The notes under the pieces were generated by a model. The model was not told the origin of the DNA. It ran no database searches and worked only from the letters and a program-made list of their open reading frames with translations. Positions 22,107-29,101 of a stretch of DNA of 32,120 bases are shown here, one piece after another. The position numbers and the translations under genes are program-made. Position 1 is the stretch's first letter; every line of letters starts with the position of its first letter. Origin of the DNA: a virus (lineage: Duplodnaviria > Heunggongvirae > Uroviricota > Caudoviricetes); IMG/VR virus record IMGVR_UViG_2579778894_000022; one strand, written 5' to 3'.

Positions 22107-22337
22107 CTACTGAATTTTCTGTACATGGTATTTTTCTCTGTAACGCCGGCAATGGTGGATAATTTCTGGCATATCAACGGACTGCCAGCCTTTCATGTAA
22201 TAACTTCCGTGGGTGCCATCGTGCCCTGTGTAATCCATTGGCTTTGGTGGTGGGCCTCCGGCCTCCCGATGTAATACCTCCTGTCGTAAACGTTCACGCC
22301 TGCCGAACTGAAAGGACGCATCCCACCCTTTACCCAT
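22107..22337 (-). CDS. Small middle-operon protein, function unknown
   Basis: 76 aa from the ATG at 22337 (GGGAGG 6 nt upstream), overlapping the preceding stop by 8 nt; His/Arg-rich. Confidence 0.45.
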   Translation of the reverse strand: MGKGWDASFQFGRRERLRQEVLHREAGGPPPKPMDYTGHDGTHGSYYMKGWQSVDMPEIIHHCRRYREKYHVQKIQ

Positions 22338-22890
22338 GCAGAACCTCCCGACAGGCGCTGGCGAGCAGATCCAGACGGTTAAACCAGCCATTCAGATATT
22401 TCCCCTGCGAGGCACTGGATTTGATAATCCCTGCGTAATAGCGGGAACGACGCAGGAAGCACTGCAACAGCAGCCAGTCAGTATCGGCACGCAGAACGGC
22501 TGCGCGTGTGTTTTTACCGACGATGCCATCATCATCAACACCTGCTGCCGCCTGGAGGATCTGAATCGCGCGTTTAACACCGTGCTGAACGGCAGCATCA
22601 AAAACGAATAAGGAAACGCCATCAGGCCATTCGTTACACTTTGCCGCCAGCCAGTAATCACGCCAGTAGATCTGCGCCGCCTGCTCGCGGGTTAAATCCT
22701 TAATGCGGGTATCAGGTTTTCCGTCACCGTTAACATCGGTTTTGCCATCAATAACGCCGTCGCGACGGTCAGAAATACCGTATTTCGTTTCGCCGCCACG
22801 GTCGGCAGGATCATTAACATAGCCACCTTCAACATCAGGGCGTATAACGAAATTCAGCGAATGAAGGAATGCAGGGGAAAACTCAGGCAT
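22330..22890 (-). CDS. GH108-family muramidase-like protein with C-terminal peptidoglycan-binding domain (middle operon)
   Basis: N-terminal EGGYVNDPADRGGETKYGI, the signature of glycoside hydrolase family 108 as I recall it, and C-terminal DGIVGKNT...RYYAGI...GW.NR consistent with PG_binding_3. Strong RBS AGGAGGG. First gene after the mor terminator. Confidence 0.75.
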   Translation of the reverse strand: MPEFSPAFLHSLNFVIRPDVEGGYVNDPADRGGETKYGISDRRDGVIDGKTDVNGDGKPDTRIKDLTREQAAQIYWRDYWLAAKCNEWPDGVSLFVFDAAVQHGVKRAIQILQAAAGVDDDGIVGKNTRAAVLRADTDWLLLQCFLRRSRYYAGIIKSSASQGKYLNGWFNRLDLLASACREVLHG

Positions 22891-22972: not shown

Positions 22973-23362
22973 TTAAAACAAAGGGGGGGAATACTGACGA
23001 TACTTTATACGCCGCATTCGTCGGATGGCTTTATAGACTGTGTTAAATGTCACACCATGACGGATTGCCAGTTCGTGAACATTGCGACCGTTGAAATCAT
23101 TCCAGATACGCAAATCCCGAATAAGCGAATCCAGAACCTGACCGCGTGGAATGTAGACCTGACCGCCGCCCAGATGCTTACAGATAGCCACAACAATCTC
23201 CAGTGAATGGGCCGGGTCAACACCTAACCGGGACAATTCCCCGCGCAGTAAATCGTTCAGCTCCGCCAGCAGTGCCGGAAAGCGTGACGTATCCTCTGCG
23301 GGATTGTCAAGATGTGCCAGGATGGTGTCATCCTGCAAATCACCAAATAAATCTTCCGTCAT
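22973..23362 (-). CDS. mor: Middle operon regulator Mor
   Basis: 129 aa; paralog of C; ATG overlaps the gemA stop; last gene before the early terminator. Confidence 0.9.
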   Translation of the reverse strand: MTEDLFGDLQDDTILAHLDNPAEDTSRFPALLAELNDLLRGELSRLGVDPAHSLEIVVAICKHLGGGQVYIPRGQVLDSLIRDLRIWNDFNGRNVHELAIRHGVTFNTVYKAIRRMRRIKYRQYSPPLF

Positions 23363-23910
23363 TGTGCCATCCTCCGTGTCTTTCTGGCACGGGCATAAGC
23401 CGCCGTCATGGCATCATAGCCGCGCAGTTCACGCCCGGACGGACTGACTGGCAACGGAAGCCCGTGACGGGAAAAGGCTTCACGAATACAGCGGATATGC
23501 CACTGCTTGAGAGTTTCGAGAACAATCAACAGGGTGTCGCCATGACACCACGCCAGCGTGGAAACACCCTGTCCGCCATTACGTTTCGCCGTCAGGCGCT
23601 GAACATATTTATCCAGCGCCACATCACCGCCATCGGTAATAAAACCGTCTTCTGCCATCTGCTGCCAGACTTTGTATACCTTCTCGCGGGGCGTGACATG
23701 CCCCTTAAAGCGGCGACGTGGATGTTTATTCAGCTTCTTAAAGCCGCGTTCTTTCATGGCATCGAGCACCTGTTCCAGTTGCGTAACCGTCAGCTCGCGG
23801 CAACTGATTTTGCCCGTTTTCTGCATCAGAAAAGCGCGGTAAGTGTCGTCGTCGAGTTGTAGCTCCCGACGGGCGACATGGATTAATTTAATCAGGGATG
23901 TGCGATTCAT
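23359..23910 (-). CDS. gemA: GemA-like early protein (host gene expression modulation)
   Basis: 183 aa ORF immediately upstream of mor with GGAGG 7 nt before the ATG; position matches Mu gemA. Confidence 0.75.
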   Translation of the reverse strand: MNRTSLIKLIHVARRELQLDDDTYRAFLMQKTGKISCRELTVTQLEQVLDAMKERGFKKLNKHPRRRFKGHVTPREKVYKVWQQMAEDGFITDGGDVALDKYVQRLTAKRNGGQGVSTLAWCHGDTLLIVLETLKQWHIRCIREAFSRHGLPLPVSPSGRELRGYDAMTAAYARARKTRRMAQ

Positions 23911-24184
23911 GATCGTACCTCCGGAAAGAGGCGGTGCTGCAACACCGCCTGAATTTACACATCAATCAGAGAGGATTTTATGGAAAATAATGTACAACCT
24001 TATGATGTTGCAGGTTATGCGATTGCATCAGCACTGGTGCGCCTTCTGGTGAAGAAGGCGATCATCACCGCAGAAGAGGGCCAGGCCATTTTCAGCTCTT
24101 CAGCAGAGATTTTAAAAGATGCGCCTGCAATAAGAACAAGCCGCCGCGAAAACATGCAACTGTCAAAGATCATGGAAGACATTA

Positions 24185-24487
24185 TCAGTTCGTTAGACCC
24201 AGATGCTGACGGATCTCAAAAGCCTCAAACACATGAGCGTCAGTAACAATATCCTGGTCTGATAACCCCAGCCTGCGGCGGATGTACTCCTCGCGGGCTG
24301 TTTCATTTTGCAGTGCCACTACTGTTTCCAGACGATTCATTTCGCGGTTGATAATGTCACGGACTTCTCTGGCGGTGAGATTATGCTTAATACCATATTC
24401 AACGATAGCGCGAACACGTTCCAGCATCCCTTTTTCAGCCATGACGTTATCAATATTAAGGGGAGTAAATTTATCTTCATTGTTCAT
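24185..24487 (-). CDS. Semi-essential early region protein, function unknown
   Basis: 100 aa; ATG overlaps the upstream stop (ATGA). Confidence 0.6.
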   Translation of the reverse strand: MNNEDKFTPLNIDNVMAEKGMLERVRAIVEYGIKHNLTAREVRDIINREMNRLETVVALQNETAREEYIRRRLGLSDQDIVTDAHVFEAFEIRQHLGLTN

Positions 24488-24792
24488 TTTGCGGCCCTCA
24501 GAATAAATTCAGGATAAAATTTCAGACTCATTTGCCGTAACACATCCAGTGCAGCAACGGCTGCTGATTTATCGTTGCCATCAGCAATAGCGCGGAGATT
24601 TTCAATAATCCAGTGAGGACTCAGTGACTCAGCAATAATGCCAAACCGGTACGCCATGACCTCATCAATAGCTTTTTCATGAGACGGCTCATATACAAAA
24701 TTCACAAAGTCATGCACTTCTTTTTTCGGCAAACCACCGGCAATCAGCAGGGCGGCAAGCTCTTCTGATTTTGAAAATACACCATTATTCAT
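24484..24792 (-). CDS. Semi-essential early region protein, function unknown
   Basis: 102 aa from the ATG at 24792, 1 nt after the upstream stop with a GGTGA RBS; the ORF track's GTG at 24807 lacks an RBS. Confidence 0.55.
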   Translation of the reverse strand: MNNGVFSKSEELAALLIAGGLPKKEVHDFVNFVYEPSHEKAIDEVMAYRFGIIAESLSPHWIIENLRAIADGNDKSAAVAALDVLRQMSLKFYPEFILRAAK

Positions 24793-24793
24793 G

Positions 24794-24976
24794 TCACTCA
24801 CCTTCACAATTCATGCACGCCGTGTCATCGCCCATATCGCAGTGGTTACATTTCTGCCCGCCACAATGAGGGCACTCTTTCAGATATTCAGGGGATTCAT
24901 TACCGCAGGTCGGGCATTCCTGTTTCACCGTGGTAAATTTCCCCAGCCACGAATACGATGTTTCATTGTTTTCCAT
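24794..24976 (-). CDS. Small zinc-ribbon protein with four CxxC motifs
   Basis: 60 aa containing CPTC, CPHC, CNHC, CMNC; GGAGG 7 nt upstream of the ATG. Confidence 0.6.
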   Translation of the reverse strand: MENNETSYSWLGKFTTVKQECPTCGNESPEYLKECPHCGGQKCNHCDMGDDTACMNCEGE

Positions 24977-25493
24977 TGTTTACCTCCGCCTGTTTTTGCG
25001 CCCGGATAAATTCGTCAGAAAGGATTTCAGTCATGCGGCCCTGTGCGGGAGTCATCCCTGTCATGACGTAAATCACATCACCAACACGGAACCACCGGAG
25101 CGGGCCGAATATTGTTGCGCTGAAATCCAGTCCCAGTGCGGGTAAGAGAGCGTCAGTACGGGCATAAGTGACCGGAATATTCTCCTGCCATATTTTCGCC
25201 AGCTCTTTTGACTGCTCCCGCAGATGTGCAGGAATGCGCGATGTTCTTGGCCTGCAACTGTTACCTGATGCGGGCCGTTGTACGGTCCACAGCTCCGGCG
25301 AGAAAGGTCGCTCATTCCCCGGAAAATTCACGCCATGAAAATGACGCCCACCAATACCTGTGCTGAATACTGACCGGCAACCACAACCCAGAACCTTATC
25401 AAGATGGCGGGCTTCTTCGCGTAGTTTCAGGCAGTCCGCCATAAACTGGTCCCATGCCAGCAGTGCTGCGGGATTTGACGTTTTAAAAAACAT
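24963..25493 (-). CDS. Semi-essential early region protein, function unknown
   Basis: 176 aa from the ATG at 25493 (overlaps upstream stop as TGATG; AGGAGG 7 nt upstream). Confidence 0.6.
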   Translation of the reverse strand: MFFKTSNPAALLAWDQFMADCLKLREEARHLDKVLGCGCRSVFSTGIGGRHFHGVNFPGNERPFSPELWTVQRPASGNSCRPRTSRIPAHLREQSKELAKIWQENIPVTYARTDALLPALGLDFSATIFGPLRWFRVGDVIYVMTGMTPAQGRMTEILSDEFIRAQKQAEVNNGKQ

Positions 25494-26023
25494 CACGCCA
25501 CCTCCTGCATCGTTGCGGGAACCGGAGAACAATCAAGAATGAGATAACGCAGTACATGGTCGGTGATATTCCAGGCGCTTGAACTGCAAATAAAACGCCC
25601 CAGCCGGATATCGATATAAGCCATCACAAAACGGGGCATTCCCTGTTCGCACATTTCGTCATCCACTTCCGCAACGATGTAAACCGACTCGCAGGTCAGT
25701 ACGCCTGTTGCAAATTCTTTTGCCAGTGCCGGAATGGCATTGCCTTCCAGCCAGGGCAATGAGCGGCGGAAGGAACACCATGCGGCATCATCAACAGCAG
25801 GCTGCTCAGTTGCGTTTCGTCTTACAGGCGGCGTCGGACGCGGGCGCGGAACGTCATAAAATCCGTTGCATTCGGTGAGCACTCCGGCATCAACCGCATC
25901 ACGCAGGAAATACACCATTGACGAGGGCAGCATATTCATTTTTTCAGCCAGAACTCCGCAGGTCAGGCGTCCGTAAGCCCGTAATAATGTGCTGACACCA
26001 TTCAGAATTTTTGCATCAACCAT
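25493..26023 (-). CDS. Semi-essential early region protein, function unknown
   Basis: 176 aa; GAGGAA RBS; first gene after a ~100 bp AT-rich intergenic gap. Confidence 0.6.
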   Translation of the reverse strand: MVDAKILNGVSTLLRAYGRLTCGVLAEKMNMLPSSMVYFLRDAVDAGVLTECNGFYDVPRPRPTPPVRRNATEQPAVDDAAWCSFRRSLPWLEGNAIPALAKEFATGVLTCESVYIVAEVDDEMCEQGMPRFVMAYIDIRLGRFICSSSAWNITDHVLRYLILDCSPVPATMQEVA

Positions 26024-26121
26024 GTTTTATTCCTCAGTAATCTGTTTCAGGCGCGAGCAATCCCCTGACGTATCGCGCCATAATTAAAAGAATGTGAATT
26101 AATTAAATATTAATGGTGGTA

Positions 26122-26646
26122 TTAAATACCGGCTTCCTGTTCAAATGGAATAATAGAAAAATCCTCAATGCCTGATTTAACTGTAATTCCGGCAACACCT
26201 GCGACCGCTTTCGGTTCCAGTAAAATCGCTTCCTTGTTGATTTCCTGCTTCGTGCGAATAAAGCGTTGCAGGCCAAGACGCTCCAGCGTTTCCATCACTG
26301 CATCCATACCACGAATACTTACTGATGGTGGACGTACCCGCCACGATACATCTCCGGTGACAAGATTCGCCGTCTTCACTTTGCCGCCGTTCGTCAGTTC
26401 GTCGCGGTTCGCTTCACACCATCCCTGAACGCCTTTTGAAAGGGTTTCAATATCGGTTTTAATCGGTGCAATCCGGGCCGCAAATTTCTCCGTAATTTCC
26501 GCGATGGCATCATTCATTTCCGTTTCCAGACGTGATGCTTCGCGCTGTAAATCCCCGATGCGTTTAATATCGGTAATCACCGCATCGCGGTTTTGTGGCA
26601 CATAAGCCGCTGCGGCACTCTTGATACGTTTTGCTGGTTTAGCCAT
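26122..26646 (-). CDS. gam: Gam, DNA-end-binding host-nuclease inhibitor (Ku-like)
   Basis: 174 aa (MAKPAKRIKSAAAAYVPQNRDAVITDIKRIGDLQREASRLETEMNDAIAEITEKFA...), recognised as Mu Gam by size, sequence and position. Confidence 0.85.
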   Translation of the reverse strand: MAKPAKRIKSAAAAYVPQNRDAVITDIKRIGDLQREASRLETEMNDAIAEITEKFAARIAPIKTDIETLSKGVQGWCEANRDELTNGGKVKTANLVTGDVSWRVRPPSVSIRGMDAVMETLERLGLQRFIRTKQEINKEAILLEPKAVAGVAGITVKSGIEDFSIIPFEQEAGI

Positions 26647-26665
26647 AAATTAAAGCTCCTGTTAA

Positions 26666-26965
26666 TTAATATCCGCTGTATACAATGCTGGATACAGCTC
26701 GATTGCTTAATTCCATCTTTCGGGCAATGACATGAATATCCAGTCCTTCTTTATAAAGTTCACGACATAAATATTTGTCGTGTTCACTGATTCGGTATAC
26801 ACACAATGATATTCCGTGCCTTCTGGCATGTGCCCGGAGGGCGGTTGTGGCGACTTTCAGTTTTTCCGCCATTTCTTCAATGGTCATTTTCCCGACGTTG
26901 GCTTCGATAAATTCCCGGTCTTCGCGTGACCAGCGCTTACGATTACACTTCATGTCAGTCACCAT
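26666..26965 (-). CDS. Small putative DNA-binding (HTH-like) early protein
   Basis: 99 aa, or 95 aa from the internal ATG at 26953 which has a better RBS (GGTGA); helix-turn-helix-like segment MTIEEMAEKLKVATTALRAHARRHGIS. Confidence 0.55.
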   Translation of the reverse strand: MVTDMKCNRKRWSREDREFIEANVGKMTIEEMAEKLKVATTALRAHARRHGISLCVYRISEHDKYLCRELYKEGLDIHVIARKMELSNRAVSSIVYSGY

Positions 26966-27385
26966 TCAGTACAGCAGAGGCTCGCGCAGTGATGCCGGAA
27001 TATGTCGCAGCGATAACTGAACCGCTTTCAGGGCAAGCGAGGAATAACAGCAGCGCGCCCAGCCTTTTGCCATTAACCGGTAATCGCGCCAGATACGCTG
27101 CCACATTTCACGGGCTTCAGGGTCTGATGCGCAGATGTATTCCCGGTCCATGACGTACTCCCATAAATCCACGTTGAACGCACCGCCAAATGCAATGGCG
27201 CGGGATATGCTTTCGCCGCAATAACGCGCACAGATGCTGTAATGGTCGAAAGCGATCAGGTACGTCTTTTCACCACAATCATCAACTTTCCTGGCGCAAA
27301 TAAACTCGCGTAATTCACCACCGTTGTTATTGCGTTCCTGAATTCGGATTAATGCCTGAATTTCATTTCGGATTTTGACGTTCAT
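26966..27385 (-). CDS. Cys-rich early protein, function unknown
   Basis: 139 aa with several Cys and aromatic residues. Confidence 0.55.
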   Translation of the reverse strand: MNVKIRNEIQALIRIQERNNNGGELREFICARKVDDCGEKTYLIAFDHYSICARYCGESISRAIAFGGAFNVDLWEYVMDREYICASDPEAREMWQRIWRDYRLMAKGWARCCYSSLALKAVQLSLRHIPASLREPLLY

Positions 27386-27405
27386 TGTCAGCGTTCCTTT
27401 GCGAA

Positions 27406-27675
27406 TTAATGTTTAACCGCATTCACCGGATGTGGTACTAAATCACATTCAGCTTCCATACCCACTTTCTTCATAGTGGTCAGCATCTCATCTTTGGCCT
27501 TTTTAATAATTTCAGGAGCCATAGTCAGGACGATATTTGCCAGTAAATCATGAGGCCCGGTATTTTCCGTTGGCGAGATATCTGCAAGACATGCTTTTGC
27601 ATCCAGAACTTCTCTGCGCCCATTGCAACTGTCACTACTTTCCAGCCATGTAAACTCAAAGATAACCTTTGCCAT
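27406..27675 (-). CDS. Semi-essential early region protein, function unknown
   Basis: 89 aa ORF with short intergenic spacers on both sides. Confidence 0.55.
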   Translation of the reverse strand: MAKVIFEFTWLESSDSCNGRREVLDAKACLADISPTENTGPHDLLANIVLTMAPEIIKKAKDEMLTTMKKVGMEAECDLVPHPVNAVKH

Positions 27676-27695
27676 TTTTCTTCTCCTTATTGATT

Positions 27696-27917
27696 CTAAA
27701 TAACTGCGCTGGCTTTTACCTTCGCGCCTTTTACCTGCTTAAAGAAAACTGCGCTGCACCACGGACAACATGTCAGGGAATCCCAAATTTCCTTTTCGGG
27801 TGAGCATTGCGTCATAATCTGTTCACCGCATCCGGGGCATTTATATGTCGTCAGCGGCACCCCGTGGCACTGACAGTGTTTAACCCATTCAATATATTTT
27901 TCAGCTTTAATACACAT
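27696..27917 (-). CDS. Small Cys-rich (zinc-ribbon-like) early protein
   Basis: 73 aa from the ATG at 27917, 2 nt after the kil stop with GGAGA upstream (the ORF track uses a TTG at 27941). Motifs CQCHG, CPGCG, CCPWC. Confidence 0.55.
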   Translation of the reverse strand: MCIKAEKYIEWVKHCQCHGVPLTTYKCPGCGEQIMTQCSPEKEIWDSLTCCPWCSAVFFKQVKGAKVKASAVI

Positions 27918-27919
27918 CG

Positions 27920-28147
27920 TTATCTCCAGATAATCTGGCAACCATTAAGACGGGCCGTCCATACAGAACGGGCCACCCCGGACTTATGCTCCATAATTCT
28001 GACCGCGCTTTTTACCAGTTCCACCGGTGGGTAAGTGATTTCAAGAATCGGACGCGCCACGCCGAGATATGATTCATTTACATGACTCCCGCGCGCCTGT
28101 AACCAGTTCTGCGCATCCGTTGCCATTTTTATATTTCGGGCCATCAT
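27920..28147 (-). CDS. kil: Kil (host killing / cell-division inhibition protein)
   Basis: 75 aa ORF directly downstream of B with an AAGGAG RBS; size and position match Mu kil. Confidence 0.75.
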
Positions 28148-28162
28148 AATTTCTTCTCCTTC

Positions 28163-29101
28163 TTAATTACGCAGCAGCGTTGAAATATCAACGTCCAGGT
28201 CTAATTCACGGAAAGCCTGACGCAGATAATCTTCGTTAACACGCTCACCTTTACCGTGAGCCGTCATGGCGGCAAGGCGAAGTGAATGATTCAGAATGCG
28301 AAGCGCACCTGGTTTCTGCGCAATCTGCTGTAATAACTCCAGTTCTTTTTCACCGTTAATCTGCCAGGCATCCGCAATAGCTTTTACATCGGCTTTTTTG
28401 GTTTTATTAATTGCAGTGCGCTTTGCAATACGGGAAAACAGACGGGCAAATTCAACCGTTCTGTTACCCCCCGTCATATTTGAATAAACCCGGTGATTTC
28501 CCATCAGCACAAGGCCAGTGCGGGTTGATTCCTGTAACAGGCGGAGTTCTTCCAGAACCTCGGCACCAAGATGATCAGCTTCGTCGATGATAACCAGCCC
28601 CTGTGTACCTTCAAGGCGACGTCGCAGGGCGCGGGAGAGCGGCCCTTTACGGCGTGGTGCGTCATTCATTCCCAGCTCAAACGCCAGTTCAGTAAGACAT
28701 TCCAGAACGCTGGCACAGGATGGCGTAATGGTGATCATCCAGACATTGTTATTGGTGCGGCGATATTCACGGGCCGCTTCGGTTTTGCCCACACCAGGAT
28801 TGCCACATACAACAGCAATACTTTCAGTCAGGCTGGCAAAACGCATACTTGTCCAGATTTGTTTTACCGTCTGCGTTTCCACAAAGCGGGGCGGTTCAGG
28901 TAGTTCTGCAACTGCATGATATTTTTCCAGCCAGCGTTGCAGAATTTGTGAAACACGCTCGTTATCCCCGTTGTACTTATCATTGATAAAACTACTGATA
29001 GTTCCGGTAGAAAGCCCGCTCTCAAGAGCAATTTGTTTAAAGGTGGTTTCTTCATTTTCTACAAGCGTGCGCAGTCCTGCGCGAATATCGGAAATATTCA
29101 T
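28163..29101 (-). CDS. B: Transposition target-DNA activator MuB (AAA+ ATPase)
   Basis: 312 aa; Walker A GNPGVGKT; Walker B/DExx in LVIIDEADHL; N-terminal HTH; immediately downstream of the transposase. Confidence 0.93.
   Translation of the reverse strand: MNISDIRAGLRTLVENEETTFKQIALESGLSTGTISSFINDKYNGDNERVSQILQRWLEKYHAVAELPEPPRFVETQTVKQIWTSMRFASLTESIAVVCGNPGVGKTEAAREYRRTNNNVWMITITPSCASVLECLTELAFELGMNDAPRRKGPLSRALRRRLEGTQGLVIIDEADHLGAEVLEELRLLQESTRTGLVLMGNHRVYSNMTGGNRTVEFARLFSRIAKRTAINKTKKADVKAIADAWQINGEKELELLQQIAQKPGALRILNHSLRLAAMTAHGKGERVNEDYLRQAFRELDLDVDISTLLRN

Follow-up and report, generated by a model that had tools for sequence, protein, structure and literature searches.

A probable semi-essential early region of a Mu-like phage genome combines a conserved skeleton around kil and gam with exchangeable small genes

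The DNA of 32,120 nucleotides (nt) from the tailed phage record IMGVR_UViG_2579778894_000022 (Caudoviricetes), called the window here in its full length, carries at positions 23911-28147 a block of small minus-strand open reading frames (ORFs) that is very probably the semi-essential early (SEE or SE) region of a Muvirus genome. The block makes up the distal half of an early operon beginning with ner, A and B, which runs from right to left in the window, and it consists of a conserved skeleton (kil and the segment gp9-gam-gp11) together with exchangeable cargo. Because its genes are near-identical to those of published phages and public genomes, the block is an already known region, with sequence, gene names and annotation going back to about 1990; it is not a discovery, and its unexplained genes are an open problem rather than a new observation.

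Identity of the block

The block is bordered upstream by MuB (28163-29101, minus strand; PF09077 at 5e-34) and downstream by GemA (23359-23910, minus strand; PF06252 at 2.4e-30), which is followed by Mor, also on the minus strand (PF08765 at 6e-30); Ner and the A transposase are located further along the window. It accordingly lies between B and gemA/mor on the strand of A and B, with kil and gam in the order known from Mu. At the nucleotide level it is 97.9% identical to the Yersinia phages vB_YpM_5/6 (100% covered), 96.9% to Mu (87% covered), 94.0% to SfMu, 94.2% to D108 and 98.4% to a prophage in E. coli JNEC-KY180, and 95 out of 5426 complete genomes of E. coli have a match to it. Mu, D108 and the YpM phages match the remaining 23.9 kb of the window at 97.8-98.9% identity. 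The gene order in AF083977 and M64097 is kil, E5 (gp6), E6 (gp7), E7 (gp8), E8 (gp9), gam, E10-12 (gp11), E13 (gp12), E14 (gp13) and E15 (gp14), and the window ORFs correspond one by one to kil, E5-E8, gam and E10-E15, with the addition of one ORF of the SfMu type. A sequence-only reading made earlier without database searches had taken the block for the Mu semi-essential early region, and the identity to Mu-family phages and the MuB and GemA flanks bear it out; that reading had missed the extra SfMu ORF14-type ORF relative to Mu, a probable plus-strand gene and the annotated Mu_54, and had not noted that GenBank annotation (M64097, AF083977) already covers every ORF.

Comparison with the named phages shows where the block departs from its relatives. 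It shares with Mu (AF083977/NC_000929/M64097) its position, strand, order and gene set, and the kil, gp6, gp8, gp9, gam and gp11-gp14 proteins are 93-100% identical, but its gp7 allele is without BLASTP similarity to that of Mu and it has an extra ORF of 102 amino acids (aa) between gp13 and gp14. In vB_YpM_5/6 (MT374853/4) and the JNEC-KY180 prophage the whole block is colinear without net insertions or deletions and has the same gp7 type and the extra ORF; vB_YpM_5 differs in its gp6, which is the SfMu-type allele (78% aa identity), and in its gp11, which is 94% identical. Every product is annotated 'hypothetical' in the vB_YpM_5/6 and JNEC-KY180 records. SfMu has the extra ORF (its ORF14), gp13, gp14 and the plus-strand ORF at 99-100%, but a DUF5420 gene is inserted after its gam and its gp12 homologue has been left unannotated. 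D108 has kil, gp6, gp8, gp9, gam and gp13 at 98-100%; it differs in gp7 (40% identical), in gp14 (36% identical) and in carrying another plus-strand ORF.

Coding status and layout

A six-frame scan, with inspection of starts, stops and upstream sequence, yields eleven minus-strand ORFs of 60-176 aa in 23911-28147, exactly as the sequence-only reading had counted them between B and gemA. Each of the eleven begins with ATG, and a Shine-Dalgarno (SD) sequence is recognizable for ten, the exception being gp9, which starts directly after the gp8 stop. From kil to gp14 the gaps between neighbours are 2, 20, 20, 0, 19, 98, -1, -14, 1 and -4 nt. The description of these genes as tightly coupled therefore stands for junctions of -14 to +20 nt and fails for the 98-nt spacer between gam and gp11. 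Searches for paralogy inside the block (the ORF14-type ORF against gp14; gp11 against gp12) found none, and a search of the whole window against Rfam gave no match.

On the evidence of sequence comparison all eleven ORFs are regarded as real genes, and all are under purifying selection. The ratio of nonsynonymous to synonymous substitution (dN/dS) is 0.05-0.47 for every one of them when measured against diverged relatives at dS 0.3-1.1, and each has a full-length match to a PHROG family, with E between 1e-35 and 1e-105; the ORFs are held to be more than chance because of these two results. That some of them are instead chance frames kept open by base composition is highly improbable. Overlapping frames are indeed numerous in the ORF lists, Mu_54 looks spurious, and sequencing errors led to the splitting of gp11 into E10-E12 in early Mu annotations, but the low dN/dS and full-length family matches, together with conserved starts and SD sequences and the confident gp12 fold, argue against such an explanation.

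Conserved skeleton and exchangeable cargo

Eighty related IMG/VR loci were fetched through Gam, 45 of which span the interval from B to gemA. Both kil and gam are found in all 45 loci, followed by gp9 (40), gp11 (36), gp8 (33), gp7 (26 by tblastn; 41 by family clustering), the ORF14-type ORF (23, at 41-100% identity), gp6 (21), gp13 (18), gp14 (15) and gp12 (12). There are 25 distinct presence/absence patterns among the 45 loci, the distance between B and gemA varies from 1.6 to 4.8 kb, and the most diverged E. coli prophages retain gp11-gam-gp9. It is because of these patterns and of the diverged E. coli prophages that the region is divided into skeleton and cargo. Ten alternative cargo proteins of related loci were searched against Pfam with no functional match.

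Kil and Gam

Kil and Gam are the only products of the block with named functions, as the sequence-only reading had stated and as GenBank annotation and family searches agree. The kil gene (Mu gp5, cim; 27920-28147, minus strand; 75 aa, SD AAGGAG) encodes a host-killing protein with 99% aa identity to Mu Kil that matches phrog_2743 at 4e-43, and its family alignment has as invariants R32, P33, P40, P41 and a C-terminal V-W...G-C..I-W-R. The window Kil gave no BLASTP alignment to Rac KilR at E<=100, and this comparison does not place it among the FtsZ inhibitors. Mu kil is reported to produce spherical cells rather than filaments, and the three kil genes are stated to be unrelated (PMC3961180). 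The label 'Kil protein for bacterial septation inhibition' in PHROGs and RefSeq is misleading for Mu Kil, because it fits neither the absence of KilR similarity nor the spherical cells of the literature, which imply a block of elongation.

Blocks of small dispensable early genes, among them a host-toxic kil and a nuclease inhibitor gam, are also found in the lambda pL region, in the kilR-ydaE segment of Rac and in the early regions of Pseudomonas Mu-like phages. In Rac, kilR is directly followed by the small zinc-binding ydaE, much as kil is followed by gp6 here, and a homology of Mu kil-gp6 to Rac kilR-ydaE was considered and rejected, since neither Mu Kil and KilR nor gp6 and YdaE align; the likeness is one of analogy only.

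The gam gene (gp10, sot; 26122-26646, minus strand) encodes a protein of 174 aa with 100% identity to Mu Gam. It matches PF07352 at 4.1e-42 (144.1 bits against a cutoff of 28.3) over profile positions 2-148 of 149, phrog_491 at 2.6e-74 and the PDB entry 2p2u, 'Gam, putative', at 4e-6. Its assignment to the Ku-like DNA-end binding inhibitors of host nucleases is certain as far as sequence can make it so, with end binding attributed to it through its identity to Mu Gam. Mu Gam is Ku-like, unlike the Gam of lambda.

In the 98-nt spacer between gam and gp11, about 46 nt past the gam stop, there is a minus-strand hairpin GGCGCGA-N16-TCGCGCC (26050-26079). Of 94 fetched loci, 57 have both arms unchanged, among them nearly every locus whose Gam is at least 90% identical, and the hairpin is kept also where the downstream genes differ, e.g. 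in SE11, which has no detectable gp11. As no U-tract follows the stem, it is no terminator of the canonical kind; attenuation, RNA stability and RNA processing are possible roles for it.

gp9, gp11 and gp12

The gp9 gene (E8; 26666-26965, minus strand; 99 aa) has an ATG that abuts the gp8 stop. Its product matches phrog_323, 'transcriptional regulator', at 6e-29, and shows several helix-turn-helix (HTH) and sigma-70 region 4 matches over residues 9-50 and 64-98, all below threshold; comparison with PADLOC gives only weak matches of the HTH type (E 0.004-0.014). The family alignment contains an invariant CRELYKEGL..IA.KMELS motif. A DNA-binding protein with a tandem HTH is thus predicted. There are two candidate starts for gp9: the ATG abutting the gp8 stop is used in D108 and vB_YpM_5, and an ATG four codons downstream, which gives 95 aa, is used in AF083977, with diverged homologues beginning nearby.

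The gp11 gene (25493-26023, minus strand) encodes 176 aa laid out as a predicted N-terminal winged helix, a Pro-rich linker and a C-terminal Gp11_C domain (PF25754; 133.7 bits against a cutoff of 27), the latter a family without known function. A structural claim for the C-terminal domain was dropped because the model was poor (pLDDT 57). gp9 and gp11 look like DNA-binding proteins, and help in regulation or replication fits them at least as well as host takeover.

The gp12 gene (E13; 24963-25493, minus strand), also of 176 aa, encodes an alpha+beta protein with a confident structure model (pLDDT 90). All 69 of its homologue clusters, including one 97% identical, carry the precomputed family PF26885 (Mu-Gp12), for which no function is known. 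DUF5420/phrog_2260 proteins fill the neighbouring slot in SfMu and YpM_3 and share with gp12 only a suggestive N-terminal motif; a distant homology of gp12 to them is not supported by hhalign (E 0.05-0.19, probability about 1%).

A published statement holds that Mu orf12 is without a homologue in SfMu. At about 1367-1880 of SfMu NC_027382 there is DNA 98.7% identical to gp12 (tblastn 99% over 89% of the protein) on which no coding sequence is annotated, and the published absence is, on this sequence evidence, probably a frameshift or an annotation gap.

The cysteine-rich proteins gp6 and gp13

The presence of Cys-rich mini-proteins, which had been pointed out in the sequence-only reading, is substantiated for two products, gp6 and gp13, by conserved CxxC pairs. 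The gp6 gene (E5; 27696-27917, minus strand) starts 2 nt after the kil stop and encodes 73 aa with nine Cys that match phrog_3786 at 2e-40; two alleles of 78% identity share C27-x2-C30, C51-x2-C54, C2, C38 and C50 without change. Its match to an FmdB-type zinc-ribbon model (E 0.0011, 19 bits against a cutoff of 31.3) is below threshold. The gp13 gene (E14; 24794-24976, minus strand) encodes 60 aa with eight Cys in four CxxC motifs, none of which is lost even in the homologue of a Klebsiella phage (47% identical by tblastn; 57% in the alignment); gp13 reaches 19.2 bits against DnaJ_CXXCXGXG, whose cutoff is 32.7, and its other zinc-ribbon matches are below threshold as well. In both proteins, then, paired CxxC motifs are conserved and no curated model is matched above threshold. 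They are consistent with putative zinc-ribbon-like mini-proteins, and gp13 is consistent with one that has two Zn(Cys)4 sites.

In four IMG/VR loci (L030 6090-6848 and three others) the gp13 domain is fused to a domain of ~120 aa that in other Mu-like loci (e.g. L048 6331-6720) is a stand-alone gene. The homologue in the unrelated Klebsiella phage Kpn BU9 (L012 3031-3183) lies between helicase/exonuclease genes and the genes for single-stranded DNA-binding protein and DNA polymerase. gp13 was also considered as a restriction alleviation protein of the Lar/RalR type and rejected: its score with TIGR03655 is 14.9 bits where the cutoff is 39.6, and the BLASTP alignment with E. coli RalR extends over no more than an 8-residue CP.CG knuckle.

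gp7, gp8 and the other cargo proteins

The gp7 slot (E6; 27406-27675, minus strand; 89 aa, phrog_2230 at 7e-36) holds a hyperdivergent allelic cassette. In 19 loci with Gam at least 98% identical, gp7 has a median identity of 48% (minimum 31%), while kil, gp6, gp8 and gp9 in those loci are 98-100% identical. At least three allelic types can be told apart, with identities to the window type of 98-99%, about 48% and about 31%; they are colinear and have a common N-terminal motif, MAKVI.E. BLASTP finds no similarity to Mu gp7, but the two are connected by a colinear family alignment and, weakly, through PHROG. Only 8 matches to gp7 are found among 1.84e9 representative proteins. A match to a protein of 2693 aa (E 8e-26) is an artefact, in that the target is a 12-fold tandem repeat and the score sums 12 weak matches; the repeat protein is VWA-like by eye.

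The gp8 gene (E7; 26966-27385, minus strand; 139 aa) matches phrog_3690 at 4e-97 and has a dN/dS of 0.09-0.18. It is an ORFan limited to enterobacterial Mu-like prophages, with 24 clusters in 5.8e9 proteins and full-length members that are at least 71% identical. gp8 is not a Cys-cluster protein, because C52 and C56 are its sole conserved Cys.

The SfMu ORF14-type extra ORF (24484-24792, minus strand; 102 aa) matches phrog_1988 at 1.5e-49, is 99-100% identical in SfMu and vB_YpM_5 and is helical by eye from its sequence. No match to it is found in Mu, and it is absent from D108 too; in the SfMu paper ORF14 is described as unique to SfMu. The last gene of the block, gp14 (E15; 24185-24487, minus strand; 100 aa), has an ATG that overlaps the upstream stop by 4 nt. 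It matches phrog_6075 at 2.7e-54 and likewise looks helical by eye from sequence. Matches of gp14 to pesticin residues 120-185 (E 0.033, 18 bits) and to phrog_38583 (E 0.0016) are not significant.

The antisense slot next to gemA

Opposite the end of gp14 lies a plus-strand ORF (23980-24246; 88 aa, SD GAGAGG), which overlaps both gp14 and the 55-aa minus-strand Mu_54 (24015-24182) that is annotated in AF083977 and lies wholly inside it. The two frames cannot be separated by dN/dS since their third codon positions coincide. The choice falls on the plus-strand ORF because of the conservation of its start, stop and SD and because of its PHROG links: the ATG, the stop and the SD all persist in the STEC388 prophage, where the ORF is 51% identical in aa and 70% in nt, it matches phrog_8747 at 1e-60, and it has phrog_32893 in common with another plus-strand ORF, unannotated and 119 aa long, that fills the corresponding slot of D108. 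Mu_54 has no SD, has GTG in place of ATG and has lost its stop in STEC388, and has no PHROG or Pfam match. The plus-strand ORF is therefore probably the real gene of the pair, judged on these sequence features, and Mu_54 is doubtful as a gene.

The plus-strand ORF has been annotated by PGAP in E. coli prophages, and it is annotated in SfMu. Plus-strand alternatives in the slot include a DUF2513-like ORF of 138 aa in SE11-type prophages and an ORF of 104 aa and further variants in IMG/VR loci. Between the plus-strand ORF and the gemA start there is a GC-rich hairpin, AGGCGGTG-CTGCAA-CACCGCCT (23929-23950), with a stem of 8-9 bp that folds at -16 to -20 kcal/mol (z about -2) and is followed on the minus strand by CUUUCC. 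It lies within the 'semi-early promoter' of gemA-mor annotated in AF083977 and just upstream of both the gemA ribosome-binding site and the plus-strand ORF.

Beyond gemA and directly after mor, the window carries at 22330-22890 (minus strand) a gene for a GH108 muramidase with a PG_binding_3 domain (PF05838 at 9e-25; PF09374 at 7e-14). Such a gene is found at the same position in E. coli Mu-like prophages, and Mu has E18/E19 there; in vB_YpM_5 the position after mor is taken by an unnamed ORF of equal size.

Proposed role and alternatives

The SE region of Mu is transcribed within the long early transcript, and its deletion restores host viability to 100% after infection with MuBam, a non-replicating phage (PMC3325207). 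Transcription from Pe and dispensability are taken here from the Mu literature; sequence identity, coding status and mosaic architecture come from the present analysis. After infection or induction the long early transcript from Pe would continue past B and through the block, and the short or overlapping junctions and individual SD sites may allow coupled translation. The result would be a burst of small accessory proteins, dispensable for plaques, that condition the host cell and shield or enhance Mu DNA during its replication. In their documented roles Kil damages the host and Gam caps DNA ends against host exonucleases. gp9 and gp11 may be nucleic-acid-binding partners in the conserved gp9-gam-gp11 core, for gp6 and gp13 the likeliest mode of action would be binding to DNA or to a protein of the host or the phage, and gp7, gp8, gp12, the ORF14-type protein and gp14 would be lineage-restricted, exchangeable cargo.

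A number of results weigh against this account or limit it. None of the nine unnamed ORFs has a match at curated threshold to functionally annotated families or sequences of Pfam, NCBIfam, PADLOC or the PDB. The gp12 model, the only confident structure of the block, has no fold relative in the PDB, and the winged helix of gp11 is suggested by a weak model of low confidence. Scans for promoter and terminator consensus sequences show no enrichment over shuffled sequence, and the probable plus-strand gene shows that the block is not purely one co-directional operon. Finally, the phage function arm, which amplifies Mu replication, maps between B and C without assignment to an ORF (PMC10052514); gp9 and gp11 are its best candidates because they are predicted nucleic-acid binders that travel with Gam, but the assignment is a guess.

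The sequence-only reading had placed host-takeover or anti-defence activities in this region. For the region as a whole a host-directed role is documented, since deletion of SE restores viability and Gam is a nuclease inhibitor; for the nine unnamed ORFs no family, defence-library or structural match points to such an activity. The remote homology and structure prediction that it suggested led to domain-level calls for gp6, gp9, gp11 and gp13 and to a confident fold without relative for gp12; no function was assigned. PADLOC defence models have no match for nine of ten ORFs, no PDB entry came up below E 0.02 in profile searches that used diversified alignments of Kil, gp7 and gp9, and no resemblance to characterised anti-defence proteins appears in general libraries and the PDB, a dedicated anti-defence library not having been searched. 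A literature search for roles of the individual Mu proteins gp6-gp14 found nothing. In agreement with the description of the region as mostly unassigned, the functions of the SE genes are still called 'largely unknown' (PMC3820752; likewise PMC3325207).

How far the unnamed ORFs act on the host or on Mu itself can be argued in more than one way. A tentative possibility is that they mainly serve Mu rather than opposing host defences, through arm, through tuning of early-to-middle gene expression or by processing transposition intermediates with Gam. The apparent DNA-binding character of gp9 and gp11 and their conserved core with Gam are in keeping with such a role, as are the existence of arm between B and C without an ORF, the gp13 homologue in the replication/recombination module of Kpn BU9 and the regulators GemA and Mor that directly follow the block; yet many functional relatives lack most of the ORFs, which for that reason cannot be core replication factors, the region is dispensable and its deletion improves host survival, and the HTH calls are below threshold or come from a weak model. 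It is rather unlikely that several of the unnamed ORFs, above all gp7 and the cargo proteins gp12, ORF14-type and gp14, inhibit host anti-phage systems early in infection. The divergence of gp7 (31-48% identity) amid flanking genes that are 97-100% identical is what an arms-race locus would be expected to show, the cargo is strongly mosaic, with 25 patterns among the 45 loci, and made up of tiny, lineage-restricted families, the neighbouring Gam is itself a nuclease inhibitor, and the genes are early in an operon whose SE region harms the host. Hypervariability and mosaicism arise, however, also in immunity, exclusion and host-range functions; PADLOC and the other libraries searched offer no sequence or fold match to a characterised anti-defence protein, the Lar/RalR lead for gp13 failed, and no paper was found that gives these ORFs such a role. 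For the conserved members a role in replication or regulation and one in host takeover or anti-defence are about equally likely.

A benefit to the lysogen is a quite improbable explanation, in which part of the block, in particular the plus-strand ORF and its slot alternatives, would consist of morons expressed from the prophage, e.g. for superinfection exclusion or defence. The ORF is antisense to the lytic operon, the phages carry different plus-strand genes in the slot (88 aa here, 119 aa in D108 and the DUF2513-like type of 138 aa), and according to a published remark a basal level of SE transcription from Pe in lysogens 'could potentially benefit the host' (PMC3820752). A promoter was not found ahead of the plus-strand ORF, however, and no functional match is available for it; antisense frames with common third codon positions stay open easily, which makes part of the evidence for the ORF weak. 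It is unlikely that two conflict modules are present together, with gp7 (colinear, but 20-48% identical between phages that otherwise share 97-100%) as a fast-evolving inhibitor of a variable host defence or target and the plus-strand slot adjacent to gemA as a set of exclusion or defence genes. Were both to prove true, the best-studied transposable phage would have in its early operon an unrecognized counter-defence cassette and an antisense defence moron.

Significance

Read as the semi-essential early region of a Muvirus, the block now has a clean gene list in which the core is separated from the cargo, and it comes with a warning on the database label of Mu Kil. Mu serves as the reference among transposable phages, and decades of available sequence have not yet explained its early accessory genes. 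The most promising leads are gp7, the slot antisense to the operon, the core formed by gp9, gam and gp11, and the fold of gp12, which has no solved relative. Assignment of functions to gp6-gp14 would fill a real gap, including that of arm, and might reveal host-manipulating or counter-defence proteins.

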